Below are positions 857 to 62,139 of a stretch of DNA of 64,000 bases, piece by piece; positions within the stretch are counted from its first letter, which is position 1, and each line of letters begins with the position of its first letter. Position numbers and translations under genes: made by a program. The notes under the pieces were generated by a model, which worked only from the letters and a program-made list of their open reading frames with translations, was not told the DNA's origin and made no database searches. The stretch comes from Acidobacteriota bacterium (GTDB lineage: Bacteria > Acidobacteriota > UBA6911 > RPQK01 > CBDBID01): the NCBI GenBank assembly GCA_965205565.1, contig CBDBID010000043.1, positions 135,997 through 199,996 of the forward strand, in the 5' to 3' direction.

Positions 857-3365
857 TTACAGCTCGACGATCTCGCCTTCTGTCGGAAAGCGTGAAAAAG
901 CGGACAGATAGAGATCTTCGATGATCTGCCGATCGGTCAACCCTTTTAGCATGAGCCGTTCCACTCGGCTCCCCTCACCCGCCAGGCGGGTAGTGTAGGT
1001 GGGCCCGGCCAACCGATGCAGGCTTTGCAGCAGGGTGGGCTCGGGGCCGCGATCCGGGATGCCGCGCCGGTCGTTGCGGCCGTACACCTCAAAGAATCGG
1101 GAGGGAATCAGGGTGGGAAGCAACTGGATGGCCCGAGTGCCGGGTGGCGCTCCGGAACTGGCATCCTCTCCCTCCCTGACGATCAGCTCGGAATCCAGGC
1201 CGGTCACTTGGGAAATCGTGTCCAGCAAGACGGGTGCCTCCAGTAATCGAGGCTGCGAACGGGAGTAATTGATCCTGTCTTTGCCATTGTTCCCGTTGGG
1301 CCTGGCTGACAGTTGATACGTCCTGGATTGCAGGATGCGGCGCATCAGATGCAGCAGATCGTAACCGTGAGTCACGAAATCGGCAGCCAGTTTCTCCAGG
1401 AGTTCGGGGTGAGTGGGTGGATTGGTCGATCGAAAGTCGTCGACCGGGTCCACGATGCCCCGGCCGAAGAATTGGCTCCAGATCCGGTTCACGATGGCTT
1501 GGGAAAAGTAAGGCGAGGCGACCATCCACTCCGCCAGCGGTTTTCGCGGATCTCCCCGCTGCTCTTCCGCCAGTTCCGTTCCGTCCAGAAAACGGGGTGT
1601 CACCACTTCTTTTGTCCGCGGGTGCATCAGCTTGGCGGGACTCCCGTCCTTGCGCTTTCCATGGCCGGCCGGATCGTCGATCACGAAGTAGGGACCCCGG
1701 ACCTGGGTCACATCCCGCACCCGCGTCATGTTGCCGAAGAAGGCTGCTAGCCCCCAGAACTGATCCTGGCTCCAGTTTTCGAAGGGGTGATTGTGACACT
1801 GGGCGCAGCCCAGCCGGCGGCCCCAAAAGACCCGGACTTGCTCGGTGGTAATGGCTTCCACCGGAGTGAGATCCCGAAACGTCCAGTAATGAGAACTGGC
1901 CGGCTCGAAACCCTGGGCCGTCAGGCGCTCCCGAGCCAGCTGGTCGTAGGGACGGTTTTGAGCAATGTTGCGGCGGATCCAATCCTCGTAGCGCTGGGCG
2001 TGCTCCACGTTCAAGGTGGCTCCGCTGTAGACGCGGAATAGTTCGCTGAATCGATAGGTCCAGTACTCGACATATTCGGGCGAGTGGAAGAAGAATTTCG
2101 ATGAGTTGGTCCCGTTTTCGGGGATCCTGGTCGCTCAGGAACTCCCGCACCCGTTCCGGCGGAGGCAAGGTGCCGGTGACGTCCAGGCAGGCCCGCCTCA
2201 GAAATTCGCCATCGCTCGACAGGTGCGACGGAAGGATGTTGAACTTGCGGAGCTTGGCGAAGACGTGCTCATCGATCAGGTTTCTGGGTTCCACCTCCGG
2301 GAAGTCCGCCACCGACTCGGCAATGACTCCGAAACGAGCGCTGGCGGCATGGCCCGCTGCTCGGACTATGATGGCCGTCTCGCCGATCTGCTTGGCGCTC
2401 ACCAGGCCATCCTCGCTGACATCCAGGACTTCGTAATCGTTGGACTCATAGAGAACCTGATCGGTGATGTCCTCTCGCCTCCCGTTGGAGAGGTGGGCGT
2501 TGACCAGAAGCTGGCGACATCCCTGGGAGTCCAGGACCGCCTCAGCCGGGACAATCTCCAGCCTTTCGATCCGGACCGCTTTCTCCCCGTCCTCCGCCCC
2601 GTAGGGAGCGCCACTTTGAATCCAGTTGAGGAGGGTCCGATAATCGGTCGAATCCTGGCTGAAGCGCTGCCCACCGCCGTGCTGGACGGCAGCCGTGGCC
2701 TTCTGCAGCAGCAGGCTCTGTTCGGGCTCTTGCAGGTGGACGCGCGGGGTCTTGGGCTCGTCGGATTCCGCCGTCATCACCTCATAGGTGCCGCCCTGCA
2801 CAATCCAGTGATAATCGTCTTTGGGAAAGAGGGCATTGACGGACAGCTTGAAGCCGCCCTGACCTTTGACACCTCCGTGACAATCGCTGCTGTTGCAGCC
2901 CTTCTTGGTGAAGATCCCGCCGATATCCCGGGCGAAACCAAAGGGTCGGTTCTCCTCGATCCCCTGGATCCGCACCCGGATCCGTGCGGTATGGCCGGCG
3001 AAGCTCCCGATCAGGTCCACTTCGCCGTTGGACAAAGCCAGCAGCGTGACGCCGGTCTCTAGTTGAGCGACGTCCAGCGTCGATAGGTTCCACTCACTCT
3101 CAGAGCTTACGTCCCGTTCCAAACCGTCTTCATAGGTGGCCAGCATCAGGAAGCGCTGGGAGGCCTGGGCTCCCCACAACGTGGGTTGCTGGGGAACGAG
3201 TCGCAACGAGTTCACTTGGGAGGCCGGAGGAAGAGCGGTGGGAGTCATCTTCTGGGTGGACTCCGCTGCGGCAGAGAACGCCAGATGGGTACCGCCACAC
3301 CACACCAGCATCACTGCCAGCGGTGCTGCCAGAGCGGTTTTCCTCGATCTGTCCGGATTTTTCAT
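857..3365 (-). CDS. PSCyt2/DUF1549/DUF1553 protein (Planctomycete cytochrome-like plus PSD domains). It is split into two ORFs (1089..3365 and 857..2014) by a 1-nt indel in the GAAGAAG run at about 2084-2093. It is either a pseudogene or a sequencing error.
   Basis: Motifs GCNSSDCHGGVKGQGGFKLS, LPPPERVREFL, CAQCHNHPFENWSQDQFW. The combined length is 836 aa versus 833 aa for the paralog at 41587..44088. On the reverse complement, the correct frame across the junction reads IEILL|HSPEYVEYWTYRFSE. Confidence 0.8.
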
Positions 3366-3416: not shown

Positions 3417-5384
3417 TCACTTTGCAAGACTCCCGGAACTCTGCCTCAATTGGCTCTCCGGATCAGTCGCATCCTGAACCACCATTAGAGGCATTTCGGC
3501 GACCAGCAATCGGGCGCCTGGTCTGCCCTGGATCAGGGGTTGGGCGAAGATCTGCATCCGATGTGGCGTCGGCGTGAGTGGGGCATGCGATTCGGCTTGC
3601 AGGAAGATGGTGATCTTCTGGATATCCGGGAGAAAGCTGTATCTCTTGAAGGTGAAGTCGCGGGGCGTTCGCTTGTTTTCGATGGCGGTTCCCATCAAGG
3701 CCTGTACCCCTTGCGGAAGGCCCTCCACCAGCAAGACCAACTCTCCGGCTCCGTTGCCAAAGTCCCGCTCGCCGCCGCCTTCCGTCACCCTGGCGTCGAT
3801 CTCTTCAATCCGGGTGGTCACGTACAGGGTGGTGGCCATGCCCTGCCTCAGGTTGATGCGATAGGGATCGATTCGGACGTCCTCGAAGCCCCTTCTCAGG
3901 GTCTCTATCGTGACCTCGCCGACGTGAGGAATTTGTTCTCGAACCAGGAGCCGGTACCGGTATTTGGGGCCTCCGGCACGGGCGGTCGCGTCCCGCACCT
4001 GCAGGATGTAATCACCGGACTGCTCGAAGGTCTCGATGATCTTCGGTTCGATCGCCTTGAGGTCCCAGCTGCCCGAATCTCCCAGGGACTCCATGCGCTG
4101 GATGTTGTTGATCGTCACGCGGCCGCTGGCGTCGCGGATCTCCAAGCGGGGGTTGAAGTAGGGCGGCCGGATCTCCAGGGTCTGGAGTTCGAAGGCCAGA
4201 TGCTGGTCCGACTCCAACCTCATGCGGAAGTAATCGACGTCACCGGGCTTTTCGATGGTTCCCTCCACCAATGCTGGAAGAACGATATCGGTGGCCTCGG
4301 CGGTGGCGTTGTTGGGTTCCCGCTCGGGCGCCACAACCAGCCGCATGGGTGCCGGCGAGGGGCGTTGTGGGAGGGCCTCCTCCAAGCGATCAATGCCGCC
4401 TGGGCGCTCCCCCAAGAGGGCCTCGCGCCGGGTAGAGGTGTAGGCCAACGCCTGCGTGCCCACGGTTCGAGACCATAACAGGTTCAGACGATTGGTGCCC
4501 AGCGAGCGCGCGAAGATCCGATCCTTCCAGTGGGGATCCGTCAAACGGTGCAGGTAAGCGGAGGCCGGCCCCACCGGGACGATGCGCAACTGGTAACTGT
4601 GATCCCACCCTCCTTTGAAGCACTCCGATCCGACCTGCAGGAGATAGCAACCCTTCCGGTCGAACCAGTGGCTCAAACCGGAGTTGAGGGGAGTGTCACC
4701 TTCGAAAATCTCGGTGTGAAAGGCCAGGTAAGTGGTCTGCTGGGAGTCAAACCAGCTGCCGCCGGGCGCATCCAGCCGCAGCTGAGGGCGAAACCCCTTC
4801 TGGAGGCCCTCCCGGCTGAGAATCACCTCGAACGCCAGTTCCTGATCCTTCTCCACATCAAAGCTGTAGTAGTCCAGTTCCCCCTGGCGCCCGATCCGGC
4901 CATTGACCACGGCGGGAACGGGGAGGTGCTGGGCCTGACTGGGCTGGTGGTGCGCCAGCTCGGTCTCAGCGATGACCGGATCGTCGTGAACCTGGAAGTA
5001 GAGTAAGTTCGATATTCCTCGTGCGGAGACCAGCCGAAGGGGTTGAGGTCCAAGGCGGCATTCCGGCTCGACGGTCAGCTGCAGCAGCACCCGGAACTCG
5101 CGGTCAGCCTCTTCCGGTGGCGCGGAGTCTTCTCCCTCCTGGGGTACTTCCAGCGATTCGACCTTCAGGATCTCGCCCCGCAGGCCGTCCCGGTCAAACC
5201 AGGCGGAAGCCACTCCGCCCAGCGCCTTGCCCCGCACCTCGACTCGCAGGCTGCTGCCCGCTCGGGCTCCCAGGGGGAAAAGCGCCTGCAGCTGCGGCTC
5301 AGCGGGTTGAGAGGCTAGAGCCTGAGGAGGCAACAGGCAGCTGCTCCCCAGGATTGTCGACAGCACCAGCCGGGCGAGGGTCAT
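3417..5384 (-). CDS. Secreted protein with tandem PPC (pre-peptidase C-terminal)-like beta-sandwich domains. It is a paralog of 39606..41570.
   Basis: Signal peptide MTLARLVLSTILGSSCLLPPQALA. Repeats ELDYYSFDVEKDQELAFEVIL and PGDVDYFRMRLESDQHLAFELQTLE. Its domain order is collinear with the 654-aa protein at 39606..41570. Confidence 0.65.
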   Translation of the reverse strand: MTLARLVLSTILGSSCLLPPQALASQPAEPQLQALFPLGARAGSSLRVEVRGKALGGVASAWFDRDGLRGEILKVESLEVPQEGEDSAPPEEADREFRVLLQLTVEPECRLGPQPLRLVSARGISNLLYFQVHDDPVIAETELAHHQPSQAQHLPVPAVVNGRIGRQGELDYYSFDVEKDQELAFEVILSREGLQKGFRPQLRLDAPGGSWFDSQQTTYLAFHTEIFEGDTPLNSGLSHWFDRKGCYLLQVGSECFKGGWDHSYQLRIVPVGPASAYLHRLTDPHWKDRIFARSLGTNRLNLLWSRTVGTQALAYTSTRREALLGERPGGIDRLEEALPQRPSPAPMRLVVAPEREPNNATAEATDIVLPALVEGTIEKPGDVDYFRMRLESDQHLAFELQTLEIRPPYFNPRLEIRDASGRVTINNIQRMESLGDSGSWDLKAIEPKIIETFEQSGDYILQVRDATARAGGPKYRYRLLVREQIPHVGEVTIETLRRGFEDVRIDPYRINLRQGMATTLYVTTRIEEIDARVTEGGGERDFGNGAGELVLLVEGLPQGVQALMGTAIENKRTPRDFTFKRYSFLPDIQKITIFLQAESHAPLTPTPHRMQIFAQPLIQGRPGARLLVAEMPLMVVQDATDPESQLRQSSGSLAK

Positions 5385-6506: not shown

Positions 6507-6912
6507 GGGAATGCCTCCTCTCCAAAAGAATGATGTAGGTTGGATTCCGACTGCTGGGCCTGGCAGGAATCTCTTTCCCAGGATATTAGCGAATGGTCTC
6601 GGTCTTGAACATTCGCCTCCTTACGCGGGAAAAGGATTCGTCCCCGGTGGCTGGCAAAAAGGTCGTGCAGGATCTACTGACAAGGTAAGCCGTCCTTCCT
6701 GGCCAGAGGTCGGTTCCTCGGCACCACCCGAAGGCTCCAAGGCTCCCGTTTCGTGGGCACCACAAGAGACCTCCCGGAACACCCAGCGGGTCAGTGATGC
6801 TTTGGGCGAGGGAGAAAGTCGGGGTGGACGAGTCCGAGGCGGAACTTGTGCGCTCGCAAACGGCTTTTTTATACTGGCAACGGCTGGTACGCCCAGCGGA
6901 TCGGCTGCATGA

Positions 6913-6998
6913 GCCCGGGTGGCGGAACTGGCAGACGCACAGGACTTAAAATCCTGTGGGGGGTGACCCCCGTGCGGGTTCGATCCCCGCCCCGGGCA
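6913..6998 (+). tRNA. tRNA-Leu (anticodon TAA), with a long variable arm
   Basis: Acceptor stem gcccggg/cccgggc, anticodon loop cuUAAaa, T-loop ggttcgatccc, discriminator a. No encoded CCA. Confidence 0.85.
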
Positions 6999-7043
6999 CT
7001 TACAAATCAACAGGTTAAAGAGATCCCTGTCCACCACGACAAG

Positions 7044-7122
7044 CCTGAAATCAGGCAATTGTAACCAAAAATGTAACCGCGCCGACCCAACTCTATCCAA
7101 CCCCAGCCAACCTGAGGTCATT
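7044..7122 (+). repeat. Conserved tRNA-downstream motif, copy A (cctgaaa...TGTAACCaaaaaTGTAACCgc...cccaaccccagccaa...ggtcatt). The first TGTAACC lies 62 nt after the tRNA-Leu discriminator.
   Basis: About 75% identical to 13923..14020 at the same offset from tRNA-Arg. It contains an internal direct repeat with 12-bp period. Confidence 0.6.
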
Positions 7123-7323
7123 CTGGAGCGACTTGTCATTCGCATGTTCGTAGCAAGTTAAGGTGTCCGGTTTAGAGTTGATAGTCGACGACTCCCAACC
7201 CTTGGGAGTCATCCTGTTTCGGGAAACAATCGTGCACGTCCCCATCACGACACAGGGAAGCGCTGACGGCCCAAGGCTGGAGGGCCACGAAATCTGGAGA
7301 AGTGCTCGTCGTAGACGCTCTTT

Positions 7324-10246
7324 TTGACTGTCATTAGCCATTGTGACAGGCTGATCCCGACCATACCCCGTGGATCGCAGGAGACGCTCCCTTTGACCGG
7401 TCCGAAGGCATACAGATCGCTACCTGAGCGCACACCGAAGGTGGGCGAGCTGATCCAAGTACGTTCGAGGAGGTGGCTAGTAGAGGAGGTGGTCGAGCCC
7501 ACGACTCCAAGTCACTCAACCCTGGTCAAGCTTGCCTGTGCGGACGACGACGCCCAGGGTCAATCCCTGGACGTGTTCTGGGCCTACGAGGTTGACCGGC
7601 GGATCCTGGAAGAAGAGGGTTGGAGGGATCTTGCCGCAAAGGGTTTTGACGCTCCTCGGCAGTTTGCGGCCTTCCTCCACATGCTGCGATGGAATTGCGT
7701 CACAGCCACCGATCCAAACCTATTCCAGGCCCCTTTCCGTGCCGGCATAAAGATCGATGCCTACCAGATGGAGCCCTTGCGCAAGGCGCTCCGTCTCCCG
7801 CGCGTCAACCCTCTTCATCGCCGCCGACACCGGCCTGGGTAAGATGATCGAAGCGGGCCTGATCGCTCGCGAGTTGCTCCTCCGCAAGAAGGTCAAGACC
7901 ATCGTGGTCGCCGTGCCCCCGTCCGTGATCGAGCAATGGAAGGGTGAACTCGAGGACCGCTTCGGCCTCGTGTTCGAGATTCTCGATCGGACCTACCTGA
8001 CCAGGATGCTCCGGGAGCGCGGGTTCGGCGTTAATCCGTGGCGAACCCACAGCCGCTTCCTCGTTTCGCACAACCTCCTGATTGATGCGACCTATGCGGA
8101 CCCTCTTTGCGAGTGACTTGGGCCCATGCTGCCGGGGAGTCTACTCATTATTGATGAGGCTCATCACGCCGCACCCGCGAGCGGCGGGCACTACGGCATC
8201 GAGACGAAGTTCACCCGTGCCATCCGTGACCTCTGCGCTCGCTTTGAGCATCGGCTTTTCCTATCCGCGACGCCACACAACGGCCACTCCAACAGCTTCT
8301 CGACGCTGCTGGAGCTGCTCGACCCCTACCGCTTCACCCGCGGTGTCAAGGTTCGCGGCAAGAAGGCCCTCGAGGACATCATGGTCCGACGTCTCAAGGA
8401 GGACATCCGCGAGGTCCAGGGCGGTTTTCCAAGGCGTGTCGTCGAGCGGGTTGTCATTGGCGGCCTGCCCGAAGACGCGCCAGAACTTGAGCTGTCACGA
8501 CTTCTCGATCAATACCGCACAGTGCGCGAAGAGCGTCACGCCATCACCTCCCGCAGAGCCCAGGCCGCGGCAGGGCTTCTCATCGTGGGACTACAGCAGC
8601 GGCTGCTCTCCTCCACGGAGGCTTTCGCGCGCAGCTTGAAGGTCCACCGCAAAACGGTCGTGCGCCAGTGGCAGAAGGCAAGCGCGGAGCCCACCGTGGC
8701 TCCGAAAGCGGTCGAGGAAGAGGCCCTTCTCTTCACCACTTCCCCGGACGCCGCCGACGAGCGTGGCAATTGGCAGCCCGAGCAGCTCGAAGCCGAGGAA
8801 GCGGCTCAGATCGAGGCCGTGACCGCGGCCGCTGAGGTCGGCGCAAAGCGGGACGCGCAGACGGAGGCCCTCTGGCAGCAAGAGCAGGAACTCCTCGACC
8901 AGATGCAGGAAATCGCCGAGAAGACCCGACACCTGCCCGACGCCAAGACCCGCCGGCTCATCGACTGGATCCGGGAGAATATGTGTTCAGGTCTGCCGCC
9001 CTTTGGCCATGTTTCGGCCGGCGCGTCCCCGAAGTGGAACAACCGTCGCGTACTGATTTTCACCGAGAACCGCGAGGGCACGAAGCGCTACCTGAAACTG
9101 ATCCTCGAGCAGGCCATCGAGAGCACTAACCGAGCGGAGGAGCGGATTAAAGTCATCGACGGCCTGACGAGAGGGAGTAGCCGTAAGGAGATTCAGCGTA
9201 GGTTCAACACCGATCCAGCAAAGGACCCTCTGCGCATCCTGCTCGCCACCGATGCCGCCTGCGAAGGCCTCAATTTCCAGGCTCACTGTGCGGACCTCTT
9301 CCACTTCGATCTGCCTTGGAACCCTGGCCGCATCGAGCAGCGCAACGGCCGCATCGACCGCAAGCTGCAGCCGGCTGACGAGGTCCGTTGCCACTACTTT
9401 GTCCTCCCCCAGCGTGTTGAAGACCGTGTACTTGAGGTCCTTGTCAGAAAGACCGAGACCATCAAAAAGGAGTTGGGCAGTCTCTCGAAGGTCATCGATG
9501 ATGACATCGAGCGCAGACTCGGGGGCGGCATCCGCCACCGCGACGCCGGTCAGCTGGCCCGCGACATTGACCAGGCCGACCTCGACGAGGAGCGCAAGCG
9601 CGTTACCGAAGAGGAGCTCGAGGCCACCCGCGAGCGCCAAGAGGATCTGAAGGTACAGATCGAACGCTGCCAAAACCTCCTCGACAGCTCCCGCAAATGG
9701 GTGGACTTTGAGCCTGAGCCCTTCCGTGACGCCCTCTCCTGCTCCCTCGAGTTGCTGGGTGCAGAGCCCCTCGCAGAGACCAGTGACGAGGATGGCTCGC
9801 CGGTTTGGACCTTCCCCCCCCTTGACCGGCGCGCCGGGACCGACGCCAGTTGGGCTGCGACACTGGACACACTGCGAGCACCTCGCAAGACGGATCAGAA
9901 GCTTACCGAGTGGCGTCGTGAGGCACCGATCCGGCCGGTCGTCTTCGAGGATGTCGGCGTCCTCAGCGAGGAGACCGTACACCTTCACCTTGAGCAACGA
10001 GTCGCTCAACGTTTGCTCGCCCGCTTCCGCTCCCAGGGCTTCATCCAGATCCCGATAGGCCAGAAGTCCGGCATCCGAAGTGACCTTTGCCCCATGAAAC
10101 TCAAGCCTCAAACTGCCATCAAAACCGAGCTTCATACCTTCACCCTTTGGGTCGGCCATTTCTTGCTCCATTCATGCGCCATATCTCCTTTATTTATAGC
10201 GTCGTACATCGATAAAAGGAAGCATTTATCGTGTCCCATATGGTGA
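7324..10246 (+). pseudogene. SNF2-family helicase (about 970 aa if repaired). It is broken by an extra C in the CCC run at about 7808-7810 and by an in-frame TGA at 8114-8116.
   Basis: Motif I LFIAADTGLGKTIEAGL, motif II LIIDEAHHA, motif III LFLSATPHNG, motifs V/VI LLATDAACEGLNFQ...QRNGRIDRK. The three ORFs are collinear. ORF2 and ORF3 share a frame across the TGA (DPLCE*LGPMLPGSLLIIDEAHH). Confidence 0.75.
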
Positions 10247-10883
10247 ATGCGGGACAACTGAGAAAGATCTCATGGCGGTCATTCCTTCCCCCTCAGCGCC
10301 GTCTTGCCGCTAGGACAGAATCAAGGCGACCCAGGGAGTGGGGATCAAGGTGGTAGCGGCCAGAGAAACTCAGTTCTCAACAGGTTGTCTTTGCTCCACC
10401 CGTACTATCATGGGATTAAAGGGTCGATAGAGTACGGCCTCGGCTAGCCCAAGACCTTGCCTTCTTCGGCAGCTTTCCCGGTCTTTGACCGGCTTCTTCA
10501 AGTCGTATTCTGGTTGCATAACCTGCAAATGTTTTCGTGTCCAACAAGCTCCCTAACTATCTGCGCGGCTACCGCAAACGTTCCGGCCTGCCAAATTGTG
10601 ACAGTGAGCACCCGATCTTACAGACAGTGTCCGATTTGATCGAAATCGAACGGTCGCTTTCGCCTAGAAGCGGAAGTGCAGATCATGCTAATCTGAATTT
10701 GGTGGCACGTCCGAGTTCGGCCAAAACCCGTCATTCCCAATCTAAGTCAGCTGGCAACCGACGAGCACCCAGGTGGAGCGCATCGGTCCGGCACAGCCGT
10801 TTGCCGTACTCACCTGGTCGGCGCCAACGGGGTAACACGGTGAGGGGAAGCCGGAGCTCGGCACGTTCCTCGCGGAGGGTCTG

Positions 10884-13603: not shown

Positions 13604-13785
13604 TTAGAGTAGAGGGCGAGAAGGTAGACGACAACGGTGTTCCGAAGACTGCGATTAAGAAAATCCTGGGGCACAAGAACGGATCGGCTACGGAGATCTA
13701 CCTGCACACCGTTGGCGATTCTGAAAGAAGAGCAGTCGAGGTGCTCGAACAGGCGAGGGGCAAGTCTCACACAGGAATGCGATAA
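13604..13785 (+). pseudogene. C-terminal fragment (about 57 aa) of a tyrosine recombinase/phage integrase. It ends 18 bp upstream of tRNA-Arg.
   Basis: The translation ...IKKILGHKNGSATEIYLHTVGDSERRAVEVLEQARG carries the integrase catalytic-Tyr box (LGH...T..Y.H). There is no start codon, and the reading frame is closed by a TAA at 13601-13603. Confidence 0.65.
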
Positions 13786-13803: not shown

Positions 13804-13880
<77 letters not shown>

Positions 13881-13922
13881 GTCTTTTCAATGACTTACAG
13901 CGACTCTTGCCTAGAAAAGACG

Positions 13923-14020
13923 CCTGAAAGGTGTCAAATGTAACCGAAATTGTAACCGCTCCAATCCAACGCCACCCAACCCCAGCCAAACATCGCCCTC
14001 GGAGACAAGCTGGGTCATTG
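13923..14020 (+). repeat. Conserved tRNA-downstream motif, copy B (cctgaaa...TGTAACCgaaatTGTAACCgc...cccaaccccagccaa...ggtcatt). The first TGTAACC lies 62 nt after the tRNA-Arg discriminator.
   Basis: Collinear with 7044..7122, with the same offset and the same 12-bp repeat period. Confidence 0.6.
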
Positions 14021-14491
14021 GCCCGACCGAGACCGTGGATACTGAGAGGGCTGAACGGCTCGGGGAGACTGCCTGAAATCCCCTACCAGCGGCCAAAAGC
14101 CCTCGGAGCTGTTCTCGCTTACCAGCTCGGAGTTTTTTGAATTGAGCTAGATTTCTTTGCTCGTCAGCCTTCGTTGAGGGATGCCATTTTCGACGCTGCT
14201 CTAACATGGACACTGGAGGGGAAGCGGTGGCAACGGCAAAGGAGAATTCCCCAAGCGGTGTTTCAGTGAAGCAGTCTGGATGTCTCGCAACTGAGGCGTC
14301 TGAAGGAAGTGGAAGCCGACCTGGCCCGCGAGGACCATGCGCTTATAGAGCTGATCGAAAAAAGTTCCGGGGCCGTCGGACAACGCGAGTCGGTGGGCTT
14401 TTTGGCAACCCAGGGTCTGTCCATCCGGCTGTCCTGTCGCTGCGTGAAGCTCTCCAGAAAGAGCGTACTCGGATCCAATTTCGGTGCTTCT

Positions 14492-49018: not shown

Positions 49019-49021
49019 CGG

Positions 49022-49100
49022 GGTTGCCGGGACGCAAGCGTCGCAATTTCTGAATTTCGAGGTTGCCGGGACGCAAGCGTCGCAATTTCTGAATTTCGAG
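49022..49100 (+). repeat. Perfect tandem direct repeat, two copies of 39 bp: gttgccgggacgcaagcgtcgcaatttctgaatttcgag
   Basis: Read directly from the sequence. It lies between the desaturase stop and the terminus of the second IS21 remnant. Confidence 0.8.
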
Positions 49101-57662: not shown

Positions 57663-57844
57663 AGGAATGGCGCGATGCAGTGGACGAGTATCAGAAGATG
57701 GCCAAGCACTGACCAAGCTTTCGAAATCTGTCTCCCAAATGTTTCCCACTGCGTTTCCGAATGTTTCCTAATCTTTCGGCTTTTCGGGTGGCGGAAAACC
57801 CAGTCAAGTGGTTGTTTTTCCTAACGTTTCGGCCTTTTCTAGGA

Positions 57845-57894
57845 TTGGTCTACGAAACCAAAGGTCGCAGGTTCAAATCCTGTCGGGCGCTCCA
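57845..57894 (+). tRNA. 5'-truncated tRNA-Arg (anticodon ACG) fragment. It has the anticodon arm, T-arm, 3' acceptor strand and CCA. The 5' acceptor strand and D-arm are missing.
   Basis: The anticodon stem ttggt/accaa is perfect. T-arm gcagg-ttcaaat-cctgt. cgggcgc-t-cca at the 3' end. No gcgcccg or D-arm upstream. Confidence 0.6.
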
Positions 57895-58805
57895 CTTAAC
57901 CCTTGGATTCCATTGATCTTGAGTTGATATTTACTGCACCGAACTGGTGCCACTTTCTCCGTCGTACAACATTTCTACAACGTCATTACCCTGACCCAGT
58001 GCTTGATCCAGAGCGGAAGAAGACGTCTCCAGCTCTCGGGCGTCCACTGGTCAAACGTGGACATTGGGTCTCACTTTTGCACCCTATCCGCACCCGGCGA
58101 GTCCCGGTTTGCCCTCTAAGGCTAACTGTGTCTCCGGTCAGTCTACTGCAATATGGCTGACGTTCAGGGTGTTTCGGTATAGTACTCCTTGTGAAAAATC
58201 GAGAAAAAAGCTCGATATTGGGGGGCCCATTCTGGCAGATGAGTACAGGAAAGAAGATCCACACTGGCCCCAAAACCAGGGACGAGATCCTAGGCAAATT
58301 CGGGGATAGTGTCCGAACTATCATGCGCGGCAGTCCCGAATCCGGCCGAAAACCCAGTGAGTACTTCGAAAGGGAAAAGGTTGCTCTCAGGAAGCGTAGA
58401 GATGGCGAAGCGTGTAGAAAAGCAAGGGATTGCGCCGAGGTCACCGGTTCCGGTGTCAGATACTCGGAAGGTTGGCTGTGTAGATCATGCTGGCGAAGCG
58501 AGATGAGTCGGCGTAAGGGCAGGAACGAGCGCCGCAGATTGTCCAAAGGTGATTCCGGCTTTGTTCCATCCTACCCTTGGCAAAAACAGACCTTTCGCAT
58601 TGAGAATCTGCATGTCATCGATTTCAACTTCGGGCGGTTCGACGGGCTTCGAGACGCAGAAAACTACTATGCTAGCAGAATGGGGGCGGAGAAAGATCAG
58701 AACTGATCCATTCCCTCAACTGCCGCTGCACCCCTGGGGCGGAGAAAACGCGGCTGGAATCCGGCTCTCACCAGCTGCGGCAACAGATGACCATCCGTGC
58801 CTACG

Positions 58806-60471
58806 CTACTTCCTATCCGGAAATCGGCTTTTTAAGACGCTCGTAGTCGAGTCGACCCCAATCAACGGCTGGCAATCCGTTATGTGCAGTGGGCTGGGGA
58901 CCTAAACGGACCACACAGAGTCGATTTTAGTCGATTTCAAGAGACACTTCGGCCCTTTGCCAGACGGATCGAGATGTCAGCCGCAGGAGCACCTCTACAA
59001 TCGCAGGCGCGCCAGTACCAGCAGATTGTAGGAAAGGGTCGAGAGCTGCAGGTACTGCTGGAAGCGCTGCCAGCCTTTCCAGTGGCAGCGGTCCAGCCCG
59101 AAGACGCGCTTGAGCATCGAGATACAGCCTTCGATGCCGGCCCGAAAGCGGCGCAGTTGTTTGTATACCCAGCTGGAGGAGACCATCGATTCGATCGAGA
59201 GTCCGCACTTTTTGGCGAAAGCCACATCCTTGAGGCCGGGTTTGTTTTTGGCCAAGGCCAAGTTCGCTTTCGATGCAAAGCCCCCGTCCAAGCTGGCCTG
59301 ACGCGGATAAGAGCCGTATTGATGGCAGTGCCGATCTAGCATCGTCTCCAGGTAAGTGCTATCGGACGGGTTGCCCCGCACCGGCAGACAATCCAGGATC
59401 AGAGAGGATCTGCCACAGGATAGAAAAACTTTGTGCCCATAGACCGTTTCCCGGCCGCCTTTGCGAATCAGATCGGTGTGCTCCTCGAAAATGGAAACCA
59501 CCTTGTGGCTGGCCGGGACCGATTCCCCCCGCAAAACACGACGCTCGGTCTGATCGATCACTCGATGGGTCAGTTCCAGGTAGTGTTCGAGTAAGCTCCT
59601 CTCTCGCACAACACGGGGATGGCTGGAGTCTTCGCAGGCCGCCAGGGCTGCCCGGGCGTAGCCTGCCATCTTGCGGGTGACTTTGAGCAGATCGCGATAA
59701 GGGCCAATGCGCAGGGTCTGACGGCGGGCATTGCTGATGGCCAGACAGCGGCGGCGAGCCCGCAAGCCATGATCCCGGTAAGGGAAGTCGACAAAACAAG
59801 AAAGTCGTCCCAGCCAACGGGCCAGCACCCGTACGCAATCAGAGAGCAGTTGATTATCGGTGGGGTGGTGGATCTCACTCTCCACCGGGGTGGCGTCGAT
59901 TCTGACCTTCTCTCCCTTCTCCAAGCCTTGCTCACAGGCCCAGTCCACCAGCGCCGCGTTGATGGCCCGCCAGGTTGAGTGGCGGATGCGCGAGAGGTTC
60001 TCGGCCAGGGTGGAACGAGCCGGGGTCCAGCCCAAAGGCAGCCGGCAGAAGGCCCGCAAGCTCACAGAATCGGCCAGGTGAAAGGCCAAGCGGTCATAGG
60101 AGAACTGATGCATCTGTTTGATCACACCACAGCGCAACACCTGCTCCCCGCTCATTCCCGGAGCCCCTTTTGTCGAGTCTGCCTCACTGAGATCTTGCCA
60201 GACCCGTTCGTTCAGCTTAGAATTTTCATCGAGGATCTTGGAAATCTCCCGCAGTTCCTGTGCGTGCTGGTGATCGGGCCAGAGGGGAGTCAGCGGCAGC
60301 TGATTTTCACGACTTTGACGCATCTTTGACCTCCTGGCTTTGCCGTAAGTCTTGTTGTTTCAATGTTTTGTGAACATTATTGTACCAAGACACCACGACA
60401 ACAATGGAGGTCGAAGATGCGGCCTAAGCCTTTTATTTACAACTATTTATCCTTTTCCGGATGAGAACTAG
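58806..60471 (-). mobile_element. IS element copy 1 (1666 bp). It has one 442-aa DDE transposase. Imperfect inverted repeats CTACTTCCTATCCGGAAA and CTAGTTCTCATCCGGAAA. The family is tentatively IS1380-like, judged from size and architecture.
   Basis: The period between the two copies is 1668 bp. The boundaries come from self-alignment of the two copies. Confidence 0.7.
58995..60323 (-). CDS. DDE transposase (IS4/IS5-superfamily, IS1380-like), copy 1
   Basis: 442 aa. C-terminal block FRAGIEGCISMLKRVFGLDRCHWKGWQRFQQYLQLSTLSYNLLVLARL is typical of the IS4/IS5/IS1380 superfamily. Confidence 0.7.
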   Translation of the reverse strand: MRQSRENQLPLTPLWPDHQHAQELREISKILDENSKLNERVWQDLSEADSTKGAPGMSGEQVLRCGVIKQMHQFSYDRLAFHLADSVSLRAFCRLPLGWTPARSTLAENLSRIRHSTWRAINAALVDWACEQGLEKGEKVRIDATPVESEIHHPTDNQLLSDCVRVLARWLGRLSCFVDFPYRDHGLRARRRCLAISNARRQTLRIGPYRDLLKVTRKMAGYARAALAACEDSSHPRVVRERSLLEHYLELTHRVIDQTERRVLRGESVPASHKVVSIFEEHTDLIRKGGRETVYGHKVFLSCGRSSLILDCLPVRGNPSDSTYLETMLDRHCHQYGSYPRQASLDGGFASKANLALAKNKPGLKDVAFAKKCGLSIESMVSSSWVYKQLRRFRAGIEGCISMLKRVFGLDRCHWKGWQRFQQYLQLSTLSYNLLVLARLRL

Positions 60472-60473
60472 CT

Positions 60474-62139
60474 CTACTTCCTATCCGGAAATCGGCTTTT
60501 TAAGACGCTCGTAGTCGAGTCGACCCCAATCAACGGCTGGCAATCCGTTATGTGCAGTGGGCTGGGGACCTAAACGGACCACACAGAGTCGATTTTAGTC
60601 GATTTCAAGAGACACTTCGGCCCTTTGCCAGACGGATCGAGATGTCAGCCGCAGGAGCACCTCTACAATCGCAGGCGCGCCAGTACCAGCAGATTGTAGG
60701 AAAGGGTCGAGAGCTGCAGGTACTGCTGGAAGCGCTGCCAGCCTTTCCAGTGGCAGCGGTCCAGCCCGAAGACGCGCTTGAGCATCGAGATACAGCCTTC
60801 GATGCCGGCCCGAAAGCGGCGCAGTTGTTTGTATACCCAGCTGGAGGAGACCATCGATTCGATCGAGAGTCCGCACTTTTTGGCGAAAGCCACATCCTTG
60901 AGGCCGGGTTTGTTTTTGGCCAAGGCCAAGTTCGCTTTCGATGCAAAGCCCCCGTCCAAGCTGGCCTGACGCGGATAAGAGCCGTATTGATGGCAGTGCC
61001 GATCTAGCATCGTCTCCAGGTAAGTGCTATCGGACGGGTTGCCCCGCACCGGCAGACAATCCAGGATCAGAGAGGATCTGCCACAGGATAGAAAAACTTT
61101 GTGCCCATAGACCGTTTCCCGGCCGCCTTTGCGAATCAGATCGGTGTGCTCCTCGAAAATGGAAACCACCTTGTGGCTGGCCGGGACCGATTCCCCCCGC
61201 AAAACACGACGCTCGGTCTGATCGATCACTCGATGGGTCAGTTCCAGGTAGTGTTCGAGTAAGCTCCTCTCTCGCACAACACGGGGATGGCTGGAGTCTT
61301 CGCAGACCGCCAGGGCTGCCCGGGCGTAGCCTGCCATCTTGCGGGTGACTTTGAGCAGATCGCGATAAGGGCCAATGCGCAGGGTCTGACGGCGGGCATT
61401 GCTGATGGCCAGACAGCGGCGGCGAGCCCGCAAGCCATGATCCCGGTAAGGGAAGTCGACAAAACAAGAAAGTCGTCCCAGCCAACGGGCCAGCACCCGT
61501 ACGCAATCAGAGAGCAGTTGATTATCGGTGGGGTGGTGAATCTCACTCTCCACCGGGGTGGCGTCGATTCTGACCTTCTCTCCCTTCTCCAAGCCTTGCT
61601 CACAGGCCCAGTCCACCAGCGCCGCGTTGATGGCCCGCCAGGTTGAGTGGCGGATGCGCGAGAGGTTCTCGGCCAGGGTGGAACGAGCCGGGGTCCAGCC
61701 CAAAGGCAGCCGGCAGAAGGCCCGCAAGCTCACAGAATCGGCCAGGTGAAAGGCCAAGCGGTCATAGGAGAACTGATGCATCTGTTTGATCACACCACAG
61801 CGCAACACCTGCTCCCCGCTCATTCCCGGAGCCCCTTTTGTCGAGTCTGCCTCACTGAGATCTTGCCAGACCCGTTCGTTCAGCTTAGAATTTTCATCGA
61901 GGATCTTGGAAATCTCCCGCAGTTCCTGTGCGTGCTGGTGATCGGGCCAGAGGGGAGTCAGTGGCAGCTGATTTTCACGACTTTGACGCATCTTTGACCT
62001 CCTGGCTTTGCCGTAAGTCTTGTTGTTTCAATGTTTTGTAAACATTATTGTACCAAGACACCACGACAACAATGGAGGTCGAAGATGCGGCCTAAGCCTT
62101 TTATTTACAACTATTTATCCTTTTCCGGATGAGAACTAG
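60474..62139 (-). mobile_element. IS element copy 2 (1666 bp). It follows copy 1 head-to-tail after a 2-bp 'ct' spacer.
   Basis: Identical to copy 1 except for a few SNPs. In the transposase, A versus V at AAC/AVC. Elsewhere RP/RS and RS/RF. Confidence 0.7.
60663..61991 (-). CDS. DDE transposase (IS1380-like), copy 2
   Basis: Same 442-aa product as copy 1 with one substitution. Confidence 0.7.
   Translation of the reverse strand: MRQSRENQLPLTPLWPDHQHAQELREISKILDENSKLNERVWQDLSEADSTKGAPGMSGEQVLRCGVIKQMHQFSYDRLAFHLADSVSLRAFCRLPLGWTPARSTLAENLSRIRHSTWRAINAALVDWACEQGLEKGEKVRIDATPVESEIHHPTDNQLLSDCVRVLARWLGRLSCFVDFPYRDHGLRARRRCLAISNARRQTLRIGPYRDLLKVTRKMAGYARAALAVCEDSSHPRVVRERSLLEHYLELTHRVIDQTERRVLRGESVPASHKVVSIFEEHTDLIRKGGRETVYGHKVFLSCGRSSLILDCLPVRGNPSDSTYLETMLDRHCHQYGSYPRQASLDGGFASKANLALAKNKPGLKDVAFAKKCGLSIESMVSSSWVYKQLRRFRAGIEGCISMLKRVFGLDRCHWKGWQRFQQYLQLSTLSYNLLVLARLRL

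Follow-up and report, generated by a model that had tools for sequence, protein, structure and literature searches.

The window analysed here is a 64,000-nt stretch of the genome of an Acidobacteriota bacterium (assembly GCA_965205565.1, contig CBDBID010000043.1, positions 135,997 to 199,996 of the forward strand). It contains a tRNA-Leu(TAA) gene and a tRNA-Arg(TCT) gene, each followed at the same distance by the same short module, built around a direct repeat of the heptamer TGTAACC. Here we describe this module and its copies in other genomes, and present evidence that it probably represents the tRNA-proximal arm of an attachment site used by a family of integrative elements.

The same module follows two tRNA genes

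The features of the two loci are listed in Table 1. The body of tRNA-Arg(tct) spans 13804-13877 with discriminator G at 13877, and an encoded CCA extends the gene to 13880. At both loci the first TGTAACC begins exactly 62 nt past the discriminator base, and the second follows at a spacing of 12 bp. The original prediction, that one motif lies at a fixed 62-nt offset after two different tRNA genes with its heptamers 12 bp apart, thus agrees with the coordinates, although the intervals 7044..7122 and 13923..14020, which it had assigned to the tRNAs, are those of the motif itself. The two pairs account for all four TGTAACC heptamers in the window, and the arrangement TGTAACC-N5-TGTAACC, observed twice, would be expected 0.17 times by chance.

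The two loci share a gapless block of 68 nt with 81% identity (7043-7110 and 13922-13989), and the similarity continues, more weakly, back to the tRNA end. An element of 80-100 bp had been proposed; the solidly conserved core is about 68 nt, and the length becomes about 112 nt if counted from the tRNA end. The sequence ggtcatt, previously taken as the end of the element, is out of register, lying 7 nt after the block at one locus versus about 26 nt after it at the other, and does not belong to the element. From the tRNA through the heptamer pair, the Arg locus has 88.6% identity to the tRNA-Arg(tct) locus in a metagenome-assembled genome of Acidobacteriota (L002). About 80 nt past the Arg-locus module, the sequence GCCTGAAATC (14071-14084) repeats the beginning of the Leu-locus block (7043-7052) without a difference, and may be a piece of a second module or a chance match.

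Table 1 Features of the tRNA-Leu and tRNA-Arg loci in the window
Feature	Position	Strand	Basis or remark
tRNA-Leu(TAA), putative integration target	6913..6998	+	ARAGORN; Rfam tRNA model, 57.6 bits; discriminator A at 6998
IHF-consensus box AATCAACAGGTTA	7005..7017	+	exact match to WATCAANNNNTTR; between the tRNA-Leu end and the heptamer pair
Arm-type direct-repeat pair TGTAACC-AAAAA-TGTAACC	7060..7078	+	heptamers at 7060 and 7072
C/A-rich tract GCGCCGACCCAACTCTATCCAACCCCAGCCAA	7079..7110	+	about 10-nt units of CTCCAsCCAA type; candidate accessory-protein binding region
Decayed tyrosine recombinase C-terminus, 55-residue stump (..GVPKTAIKKILGHKNGSATEIYLHTVGDSERRAVEVLEQ..; ..ILGHKNGSATEIYLHTV..)	13630..13785	+	matched by four integrase queries in tblastn; translation
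tRNA-Arg(TCT), putative second target	13804..13880	+	ARAGORN; Rfam tRNA model, 76.1 bits
IHF-like box TTTCAATGACTTA	13885..13897	+	one mismatch to WATCAANNNNTTR; relaxed match in the same register as other copies
Arm-type direct-repeat pair TGTAACC-GAAAT-TGTAACC	13939..13957	+	heptamers at 13939 and 13951
C/A-rich decamer tract GCTCCAATCCAACGCCACCCAACCCCAGCCAA	13958..13989	+	part of the shared block

Distribution and anatomy of the module

Genomes (one per species) and metagenomes were scanned with the 19-base pattern TGTAACCNAAANTGTAACCGC. The genome scan returned 26 loci, with about 4 matches expected by chance as estimated from the collection size; 19 loci were in Acidobacteriota, comprising 18 tRNA-linked modules and one integrase junction (L006). 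The metagenome scan returned 58 loci, about 35 of them with the same module. The module therefore occurs at about 55 places in Acidobacteriota genomes and metagenomes, following tRNA genes or their 3' fragments, the tRNA species being Leu(TAA), Arg(TCT) and Arg(TCG). The distance from T-loop to heptamer pair is 82-85 nt in all 42 copies with a recognised T-loop, and exactly 82 nt in 34 of them. Some of the tRNAs are intact, while of many only a 3' fragment is present, with its start at the anticodon stem, the variable arm or the T-arm. Fragments of this kind result when a tRNA-targeting integrase crosses over within the tRNA gene.

The copies come from many divergent genomes and have 72-90% overall identity. 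Several may be present in one genome on different contigs, as in CBDCUP (L013, L016, L024) and CBDAPI (L011, L012, L026), and the metagenome copies very often lie 20-230 nt from a contig end, as expected of a repeat that breaks assemblies. Loci L010 and L014 are 95% identical from the tRNA fragment to 550 nt beyond the module, and differ in their upstream sequences. In L024, L015 and L043 the module is followed by a short gap, a tRNA fragment and a further module, with many such units only tens of nt apart; these arrays may stem from recombination between homologous arm modules of one element. In the few copies that lack a tRNA, the spacer is interrupted by an insertion sequence (IS; L004, L008) or deletions have occurred. 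The spacer insertion in L004 (about -2676 to -37 from the pair) is an IS66-family element, and that in L008 (about -1328 to -50) is of the IS481 family. These insertions, the frequent contig-end positions and the other types of integrase upstream of some junctions (L046, L064) point to traffic of mobile elements near the module.

Alignment of about 40 unique copies revealed a common order of parts. The tRNA end is followed by a box matching the consensus for integration host factor (IHF), WATCAANNNNTTR, then by a variable spacer, CGGCGTTT, the heptamer pair as TGTAACC-rAAAw-TGTAACC, GCGCCAA, a C/A-rich tract and often GATAAGCGGCAATTTTGATTGCC. An exact IHF-consensus box occupies the same fixed position in 32 of the 42 copies, and 39 have it if one position is relaxed, compared with 0.25% of shuffled spacers. 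Its four unspecified (N) positions vary among copies, with the specified positions kept. A candidate IHF site hence lies between the putative core and arm sites, as judged by sequence consensus only. The C/A-rich tract differs in length among copies in steps of about 10 nt, corresponding to about 2 to 6 units of CTCCAsCCAA type, or to 1-4 ten-nt units as otherwise counted. As a whole, the module consists of direct repeats, is poor in G and has no inverted termini.

Several candidates from the scans were rejected. Matches in Bacteroidota, Firmicutes and viruses (L001, L003, L009, L017, L020-22, L027, L028 and similar metagenome loci) are unrelated to the module; in L027, the heptamers are iterons adjoining a primase-helicase-like gene. 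Loci L026 (intact tRNA and module) and L011 (fragment and module) were considered as the two ends of one element, and are 42 kb apart on the same contig in opposite orientation, hence no simple attL/attR pair; the 214-nt identical stretch that they share is a repeat and not an overlap. A different arrangement was observed in L059, where two units (117-320 and 4781-4985), 4.66 kb apart, flank GGDEF/EAL signalling genes. Each unit contains a TGTAACC pair, four GACCAA-type decamers, about 110 nt of further sequence and a tRNA-Leu(caa) 3' fragment, which places the pair upstream of the fragment, in P-arm position.

Related heptamer pairs adjoin integrase genes and bound a complete element

TGTAACC pairs with the same 12-bp spacing adjoin tyrosine-integrase genes at tRNA junctions in L006/L070, L078, L080 and L091. 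In L006/L070 (Bryobacteraceae), the tail of the tyrosine integrase is encoded by TGTAACCAAAACTGTAACC and is followed by a tRNA-Ser 3' fragment. In L080, the tail is encoded by TGTAACCGAAATTGTAACCGCGCC, with a tRNA-Leu(taa) fragment about 120 nt further on and an unrelated flank beyond it, and in L091 the pair adjoins a tRNA-Thr fragment. L078 is a complete 7.5-kb element on one contig, located between perfect 48-nt tRNA-Thr direct repeats (80-127 and 7558-7605). An intact tRNA-Thr (50-125) and a heptamer pair stand at one end, followed by an integrase gene encoded on the other strand; after about 6 kb of cargo come a second pair and a tRNA-Thr 3' fragment. The pairs are at 196/208 and 7408/7420 (within 195-214 and 7407-7426), and the first overlaps the 3' end of the integrase gene. 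This element thus carries the repeat on each of its arms and is bounded by direct repeats of its target.

The sequence of the repeat changes together with the integrase. Beside an intact tRNA-Thr in L092 and an intact tRNA-Gly in L093, the pair consists of TGTGCCC (AGTGTGCCC, twice) and CGTGCCC (ATCGTGCCC, twice), respectively. In L078, L092 and L093 alike, the pair starts exactly 74 nt past the discriminator and has a spacing of 12 bp. Read as (V/G)T-x-x-(V/G)T in the integrase tail, both repeats change together in 23 of 24 aligned integrases. Fixed geometry combined with co-varying repeat sequence is as expected of arm-type sites. The TGTAACC pair is also found on the element side of the attR junctions of L078, L080 and L006.

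Together with two further copies from Acidobacteriota, those in the window give a gapless alignment with the attL flanks of L078, L091, L092 and L093, from the wwTCmAAynnnTT box through the heptamer pair. The offset is 74 nt in the Nitrospira-type flanks and 62 nt in the Acidobacteriota modules because the former hold 11-12 extra nt beside the tRNA. Since the integrase gene overlaps the aligned stretch in the Nitrospira-type loci, this stretch is element DNA, and by sequence homology the module in the window is taken to be an element-derived P'-type arm. The integrase-linked pairs, the presence of both arms in L078 and the gapless alignment to attL flanks together bear out the earlier suggestion that the repeats are arm-type sites on the attL side of related elements inserted at different tRNAs.

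Further observations concern the genes next to these sites. In L078 (61-1527, minus strand) and in the alignment of 24 integrases (A3), the called frames cross the arm sites and continue through the antisense tRNA (..ELARGIEPPTCGLQNRCSAD), so that the C-terminal tail of the integrase must differ between the integrated and the excised state. Genes for excisionase-like HTH_17 proteins are found upstream of the integrase in both L091 and L092. L091, a Nitrospira locus, also contains a gene of the HU/IHF family (Bac_DNA_binding; 1552-1863, minus strand) among phage-like regulatory genes and no more than about 9 kb from the integrase, and this gene could supply a bending protein for the attachment site.

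The linked integrase has a candidate arm-binding domain

The L078 integrase belongs to a family of at least 6450 proteins at E ≤ 1e-20, the closest named members being "site-specific integrases" of Nitrospira. Pfam analysis identified a Phage_integrase domain and a SAM-like core-binding domain, the latter starting near residue 70. An AlphaFold model was built from a 24-sequence alignment, with a mean predicted local distance difference test (pLDDT) score of 76. In this model, residues 1-59 form an N-terminal domain of three strands followed by a helix (pLDDT 82-92), and the heptamer-overlapping tail is disordered from residue 373 onwards. In a Foldseek comparison, full-length lambda Int was aligned over 377-379 columns, versus about 305 for Xer-type recombinases, which is consistent with an additional arm-binding domain in the modelled protein. 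A sequence search of the PDB matched the catalytic and core-binding domains and returned no match for the N-terminal domain. Integrases of this type adjoin the pair in L078, L091, L070 and L080; in the 64 kb of the window, tblastn found no such gene but only the unrelated recombinase stump at the tRNA-Arg locus.

The window copies are probable orphan arms

Searches of the 64-kb window by tblastn with integrase queries found no integrase of the TGTAACC-linked family. Nor was a second tRNA-Leu or tRNA-Arg(tct) fragment found in the 64 kb, and an element with repeats on both arms between target direct repeats, as in L078, is not seen in the window itself. On the 3' side of the Leu copy are an open reading frame (ORF) for a helicase C-terminus, SelO and an IS6/IS240-type transposase; an IS1-like transposase lies on the 3' side of the Arg copy. 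Because the window contains no integrase of the family, no further TGTAACC and no second tRNA fragment, we call the two copies orphans; both are attL-type arms standing alone in decayed island territory.

The stump upstream of the Arg copy matches Pfam Phage_integrase with E = 5e-4, below the curated cut-off, and stops 18 nt before the apparently intact tRNA-Arg(tct). Its subfamily differs from that of the integrases linked to TGTAACC pairs, and the stump is evidence of other integration traffic at tRNA-Arg. Just upstream of it are a Sel1-repeat-like ORF and an IS6/IS240-type transposase.

The window copies mark former or trans-dependent attL-type sites and not live islands. They may be remnants, or sites at which an integrase from another part of the genome acts, and appear to have arisen by element decay. 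The bodies of the elements would have been lost, replaced or rearranged, as suggested by the IS elements, the helicase pseudogene and the integrase stump next to them.

Proposed function of the module

With a probability that we put at roughly 0.7, the module is the tRNA-proximal, P'-type arm on the attL side of an attachment site, belonging to a family of tRNA-inserting elements with a heterobivalent tyrosine integrase resembling lambda Int. In the proposed arrangement, the 3' part of the tRNA gene would be the core in which strands are exchanged. A putative IHF-type bending site comes next, 7 to 19 nt past the discriminator, followed from +62 by two candidate arm-type sites, TGTAACC, 12 bp apart, and by the C/A-rich tract of about 10-bp repeats, probably for an accessory factor. 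We infer that the small N-terminal domain of the integrase would bind the heptamer pair and that IHF would bind the box. The resulting bend would bring the catalytic domains of the same integrase protein to the tRNA core, as in the C'-H'-P'1-3 arm of lambda. Related integrases that switch tRNA targets would retain the arm, which would explain why unrelated tRNAs are followed by the same sequence at the same offset. Two properties expected of arm sites are present: short repeats that differ from the core and keep a set distance of tens of bp from it (12-bp spacing from +62 at both window loci, with a constant T-loop distance in 42 related copies), and co-variation of the repeat with the integrase at a kept geometry (TGTAACC, TGTGCCC or CGTGCCC, at +74 with a spacing of 12).

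Several points weigh against this reading. No cognate integrase was detected beside any module of the 62-nt type, whether among about 30 flanking ORFs from 18 Acidobacteriota loci or by tblastn of all loci with six integrases, and none of the approximately 55 Acidobacteriota-type modules has an intact integrase of the linked family beside it in the window or the fetched flanks. The intact integrase-bearing examples are mostly on Nitrospira-like contigs, with the offset of 74 nt rather than 62 nt. Other types of integrase lie just upstream of fragment-plus-module junctions in L046 and L064, as do further arm types represented by TTTCCTAACG and GTTTTCGTT. In our reading, other elements inserted later at a tRNA that already had the module, and for those elements the module is on the host side; it could thus be an old, fixed flank and not the arm of any active element. 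Conservation of the tail motif VT-x-x-VT extends to the integrase protein, so that selection at the protein level could account for some of the constraint on the heptamers of intact elements. Finally, the scan pattern required an intact pair, so that conservation of the pair itself is biased by the way in which copies were collected.

Alternative explanations

An RNA, coding or dispersed-repeat origin was assessed. RNAalifold on 26 copies predicted zero pairs and zero energy, and Rfam searches of the window, at the gathering threshold and at E ≤ 1, recovered the two tRNAs and gave no match to the module; a weak 4-5-bp hairpin noticed by eye in the spacer is without support. The regulatory or small-RNA element that had been offered as an alternative in the original prediction is not borne out by these results. 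Terminator-like hairpins come only after the module (7190-7210 and, as seen by eye, about 14100-14140), so the module is probably transcribed as a tRNA trailer, and nothing suggests that the RNA itself matters. A plus-strand frame resembling the integrase tail (L080) was also considered, and the length steps of about 10 nt, which break any reading frame, rule out coding in the module. The module might still be a repetitive extragenic palindromic (REP) or miniature inverted-repeat transposable element (MITE)-like repeat, or a gene for a small RNA or short peptide, that stands near tRNAs by accident: it is present in multiple copies within genomes, it often breaks assemblies, and minus-strand ORFs cross it in the window (6621..7145 and 13911..14213). 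These ORFs, however, differ between the two loci, are in another frame than that of the integrase tail, have no integrase match and resemble nothing. Likewise, a dispersed repeat is at odds with the fixed distance from the T-loop in 42 copies, with the IS insertions or deletions in the tRNA-less exceptions, with direct repeats in place of inverted termini and with the lack of predicted structure. A dispersed REP-like repeat had been named beforehand as an outcome that would overturn the prediction; an accidental association of any of these kinds is largely refuted and very improbable.

Somewhat less remote, but still improbable, is that the module is the native 3' flank of the tRNA, an ancestral host feature such as a trailer, a signal for processing or termination, or an enhancer of recombination on the host side, with insertions pushing the tRNA fragment and module downstream. 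At least four upstream arm or integrase types precede the fragment-plus-module junctions, where the module is on the host (B') side; the near-identity of L010 and L014 begins at the fragment, and the module is probably transcribed with its tRNA, all of which speaks for such a flank. A single-copy native flank would not be expected after three unrelated tRNA species or several times per genome, nor would it be homologous, from box to pair, with arms that overlap integrase genes in genuine elements. The heptamer pair on the element side of attR junctions and the absence of RNAalifold structure speak against it as well. About equally doubtful is a functionless fossil, that is, a decayed 3' end of an integrase gene together with its arm, inherited and inactive in cis and in trans. 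The minus strand of the module does keep a ghost of the integrase tail frame (V-T-x-x-V-T, as read from the sequences), and its surroundings are IS elements and pseudogenes with no integrase found nearby. Against this, the copies come from divergent genomes and their conservation is position-specific: the heptamers and the bases specified by the IHF consensus are retained, whereas the four N positions and the spacer vary, which points to selection and not just recent ancestry, and conservation of the IHF box argues that some part of the lineage has a use for it. Telling such a fossil apart from an orphan site still used in trans is difficult. It is conceivable, although we consider it unlikely, that the orphan modules in Acidobacteriota are under selection as integrase-less docking platforms. 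In these, arrays of tRNA 3' fragments and arms, every unit having its IHF box, heptamer pair and decamer repeats, would be used in trans by an integrase from elsewhere to capture, stack and release islands at a small number of tRNA genes, much as cis-mobilisable elements or an integron platform do, but anchored at tRNAs.

Relation to known systems

The P' arm of lambda attP consists of the core site C', the IHF site H' and the arm-type sites P'1-P'3, bound by the heterobivalent lambda Int. An attL-side arm as proposed here shares with it the order of core, IHF-consensus site and direct repeats, the last set close together and tens of bp away from the crossover, as well as repeats on both arms (L078), and an integrase of three domains with a small N-terminal domain of strands plus helix, as modelled. 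It differs from lambda in that the 3' part of a tRNA gene provides the core, the arm sites are two at 12-bp spacing instead of three, a C/A-rich tract with repeats of about 10 bp is added, the heptamer is unrelated to that of lambda, and the window copies have no integrase.

A classification of the integration of tyrosine integrases into tRNA genes, reportedly by Williams in Nucleic Acids Res in 2002, is said to distinguish crossover at the anticodon loop from crossover at the T loop. The loci described here fit these classes, with tRNA 3' fragments starting at the anticodon stem or T-arm, identity blocks that reach the tRNA 3' end (48 nt in L078), and related integrases using tRNAs of different identity (Leu, Arg, Thr, Gly and Ser). 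Unlike the features on which those classes are based, the module is an arm that lies beyond the identity block and keeps its offset from one target to another, which to our knowledge the classification did not address.

In myxophage Mx8, attP lies within int, and integration into a tRNA-Asp gene alters the integrase C-terminus (intP to intX). The Nitrospira-type integrase frame similarly crosses the arm sites and the antisense tRNA, and its tail must change on integration; in contrast to Mx8, only the tail modelled as disordered is affected, and this applies to the related loci, there being no integrase gene beside the module in the window. Cis-mobilisable elements (CIMEs) and tandem accretion at att sites are known from streptococcal integrative conjugative elements. 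The orphan modules resemble CIMEs in being att-type sites without an integrase of their own, in forming arrays of fragment plus arm, and in having other elements inserted beside a resident arm; unlike CIMEs, many units are only tens of nt apart, more like scars than elements.

A literature search combining the heptamer with integrase, and one for integrative elements of Acidobacteria, gave nothing relevant. The kind of feature, a lambda-type arm and integration at tRNA genes, is well understood, and the module reveals no new mechanism; the specific family is undescribed in the literature searched, and is defined by a TGTAACC-type pair at fixed offset, C/A-rich decamers, Acidobacteriota and Nitrospira hosts and abundant orphan copies. 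A tRNA end followed by an IHF box and a 12-bp-spaced pair at fixed offset provides a signature for island boundaries and past integrations, useful in Acidobacteriota and Nitrospira-like genomes, which are poorly charted for mobile elements. In the window, it marks both the 7.1-13.8 kb region and what lies beyond 13.99 kb as former island territory. The module also accounts for assembly breaks at tRNA-Leu(TAA) in these organisms, and the co-varying pairs of integrase and arm site form a natural set for studying or engineering target and arm specificity.

Other features of the window

A third att-like site was noted at 57730-57985. It contains a tRNA-Arg(acg)-like 3' fragment (57847-57894) with 81% identity to the 3' part of tRNA-Arg(tct), and the corresponding intact gene is absent from the window. 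The fragment is preceded by TGTTTCC / TTTTCCTAACGTTTCGG repeats, the type of upstream arm that precedes the tRNA-Leu fragments in L011 and L024, and is followed, about 73 nt past its end, by a GTACAAC / CTACAAC pair whose copies are 11 bp apart. Near this site are two identical tandem IS copies, detected as repeats at 58806-59105 and 60474-60773 and as minus-strand ORFs at 58995-60323 and 60663-61991. Their transposase has 442 aa and a DDE_Tnp_1 domain, and several occurrences of it were found on the 159-kb metagenome contig ERZ25068966.

Between the two tRNA loci, stretches of 45-65 nt at about 10608-10665 and about 10718-10774 have 89-96% identity to DNA downstream of modules in L002, L016 and L024; these shared stretches (10600-10780) may be IS termini. 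At 49019-49096, a 39-nt unit, CGGGGTTGCCGGGACGCAAGCGTCGCAATTTCTGAATTT, is present in two head-to-tail copies with 97% identity.

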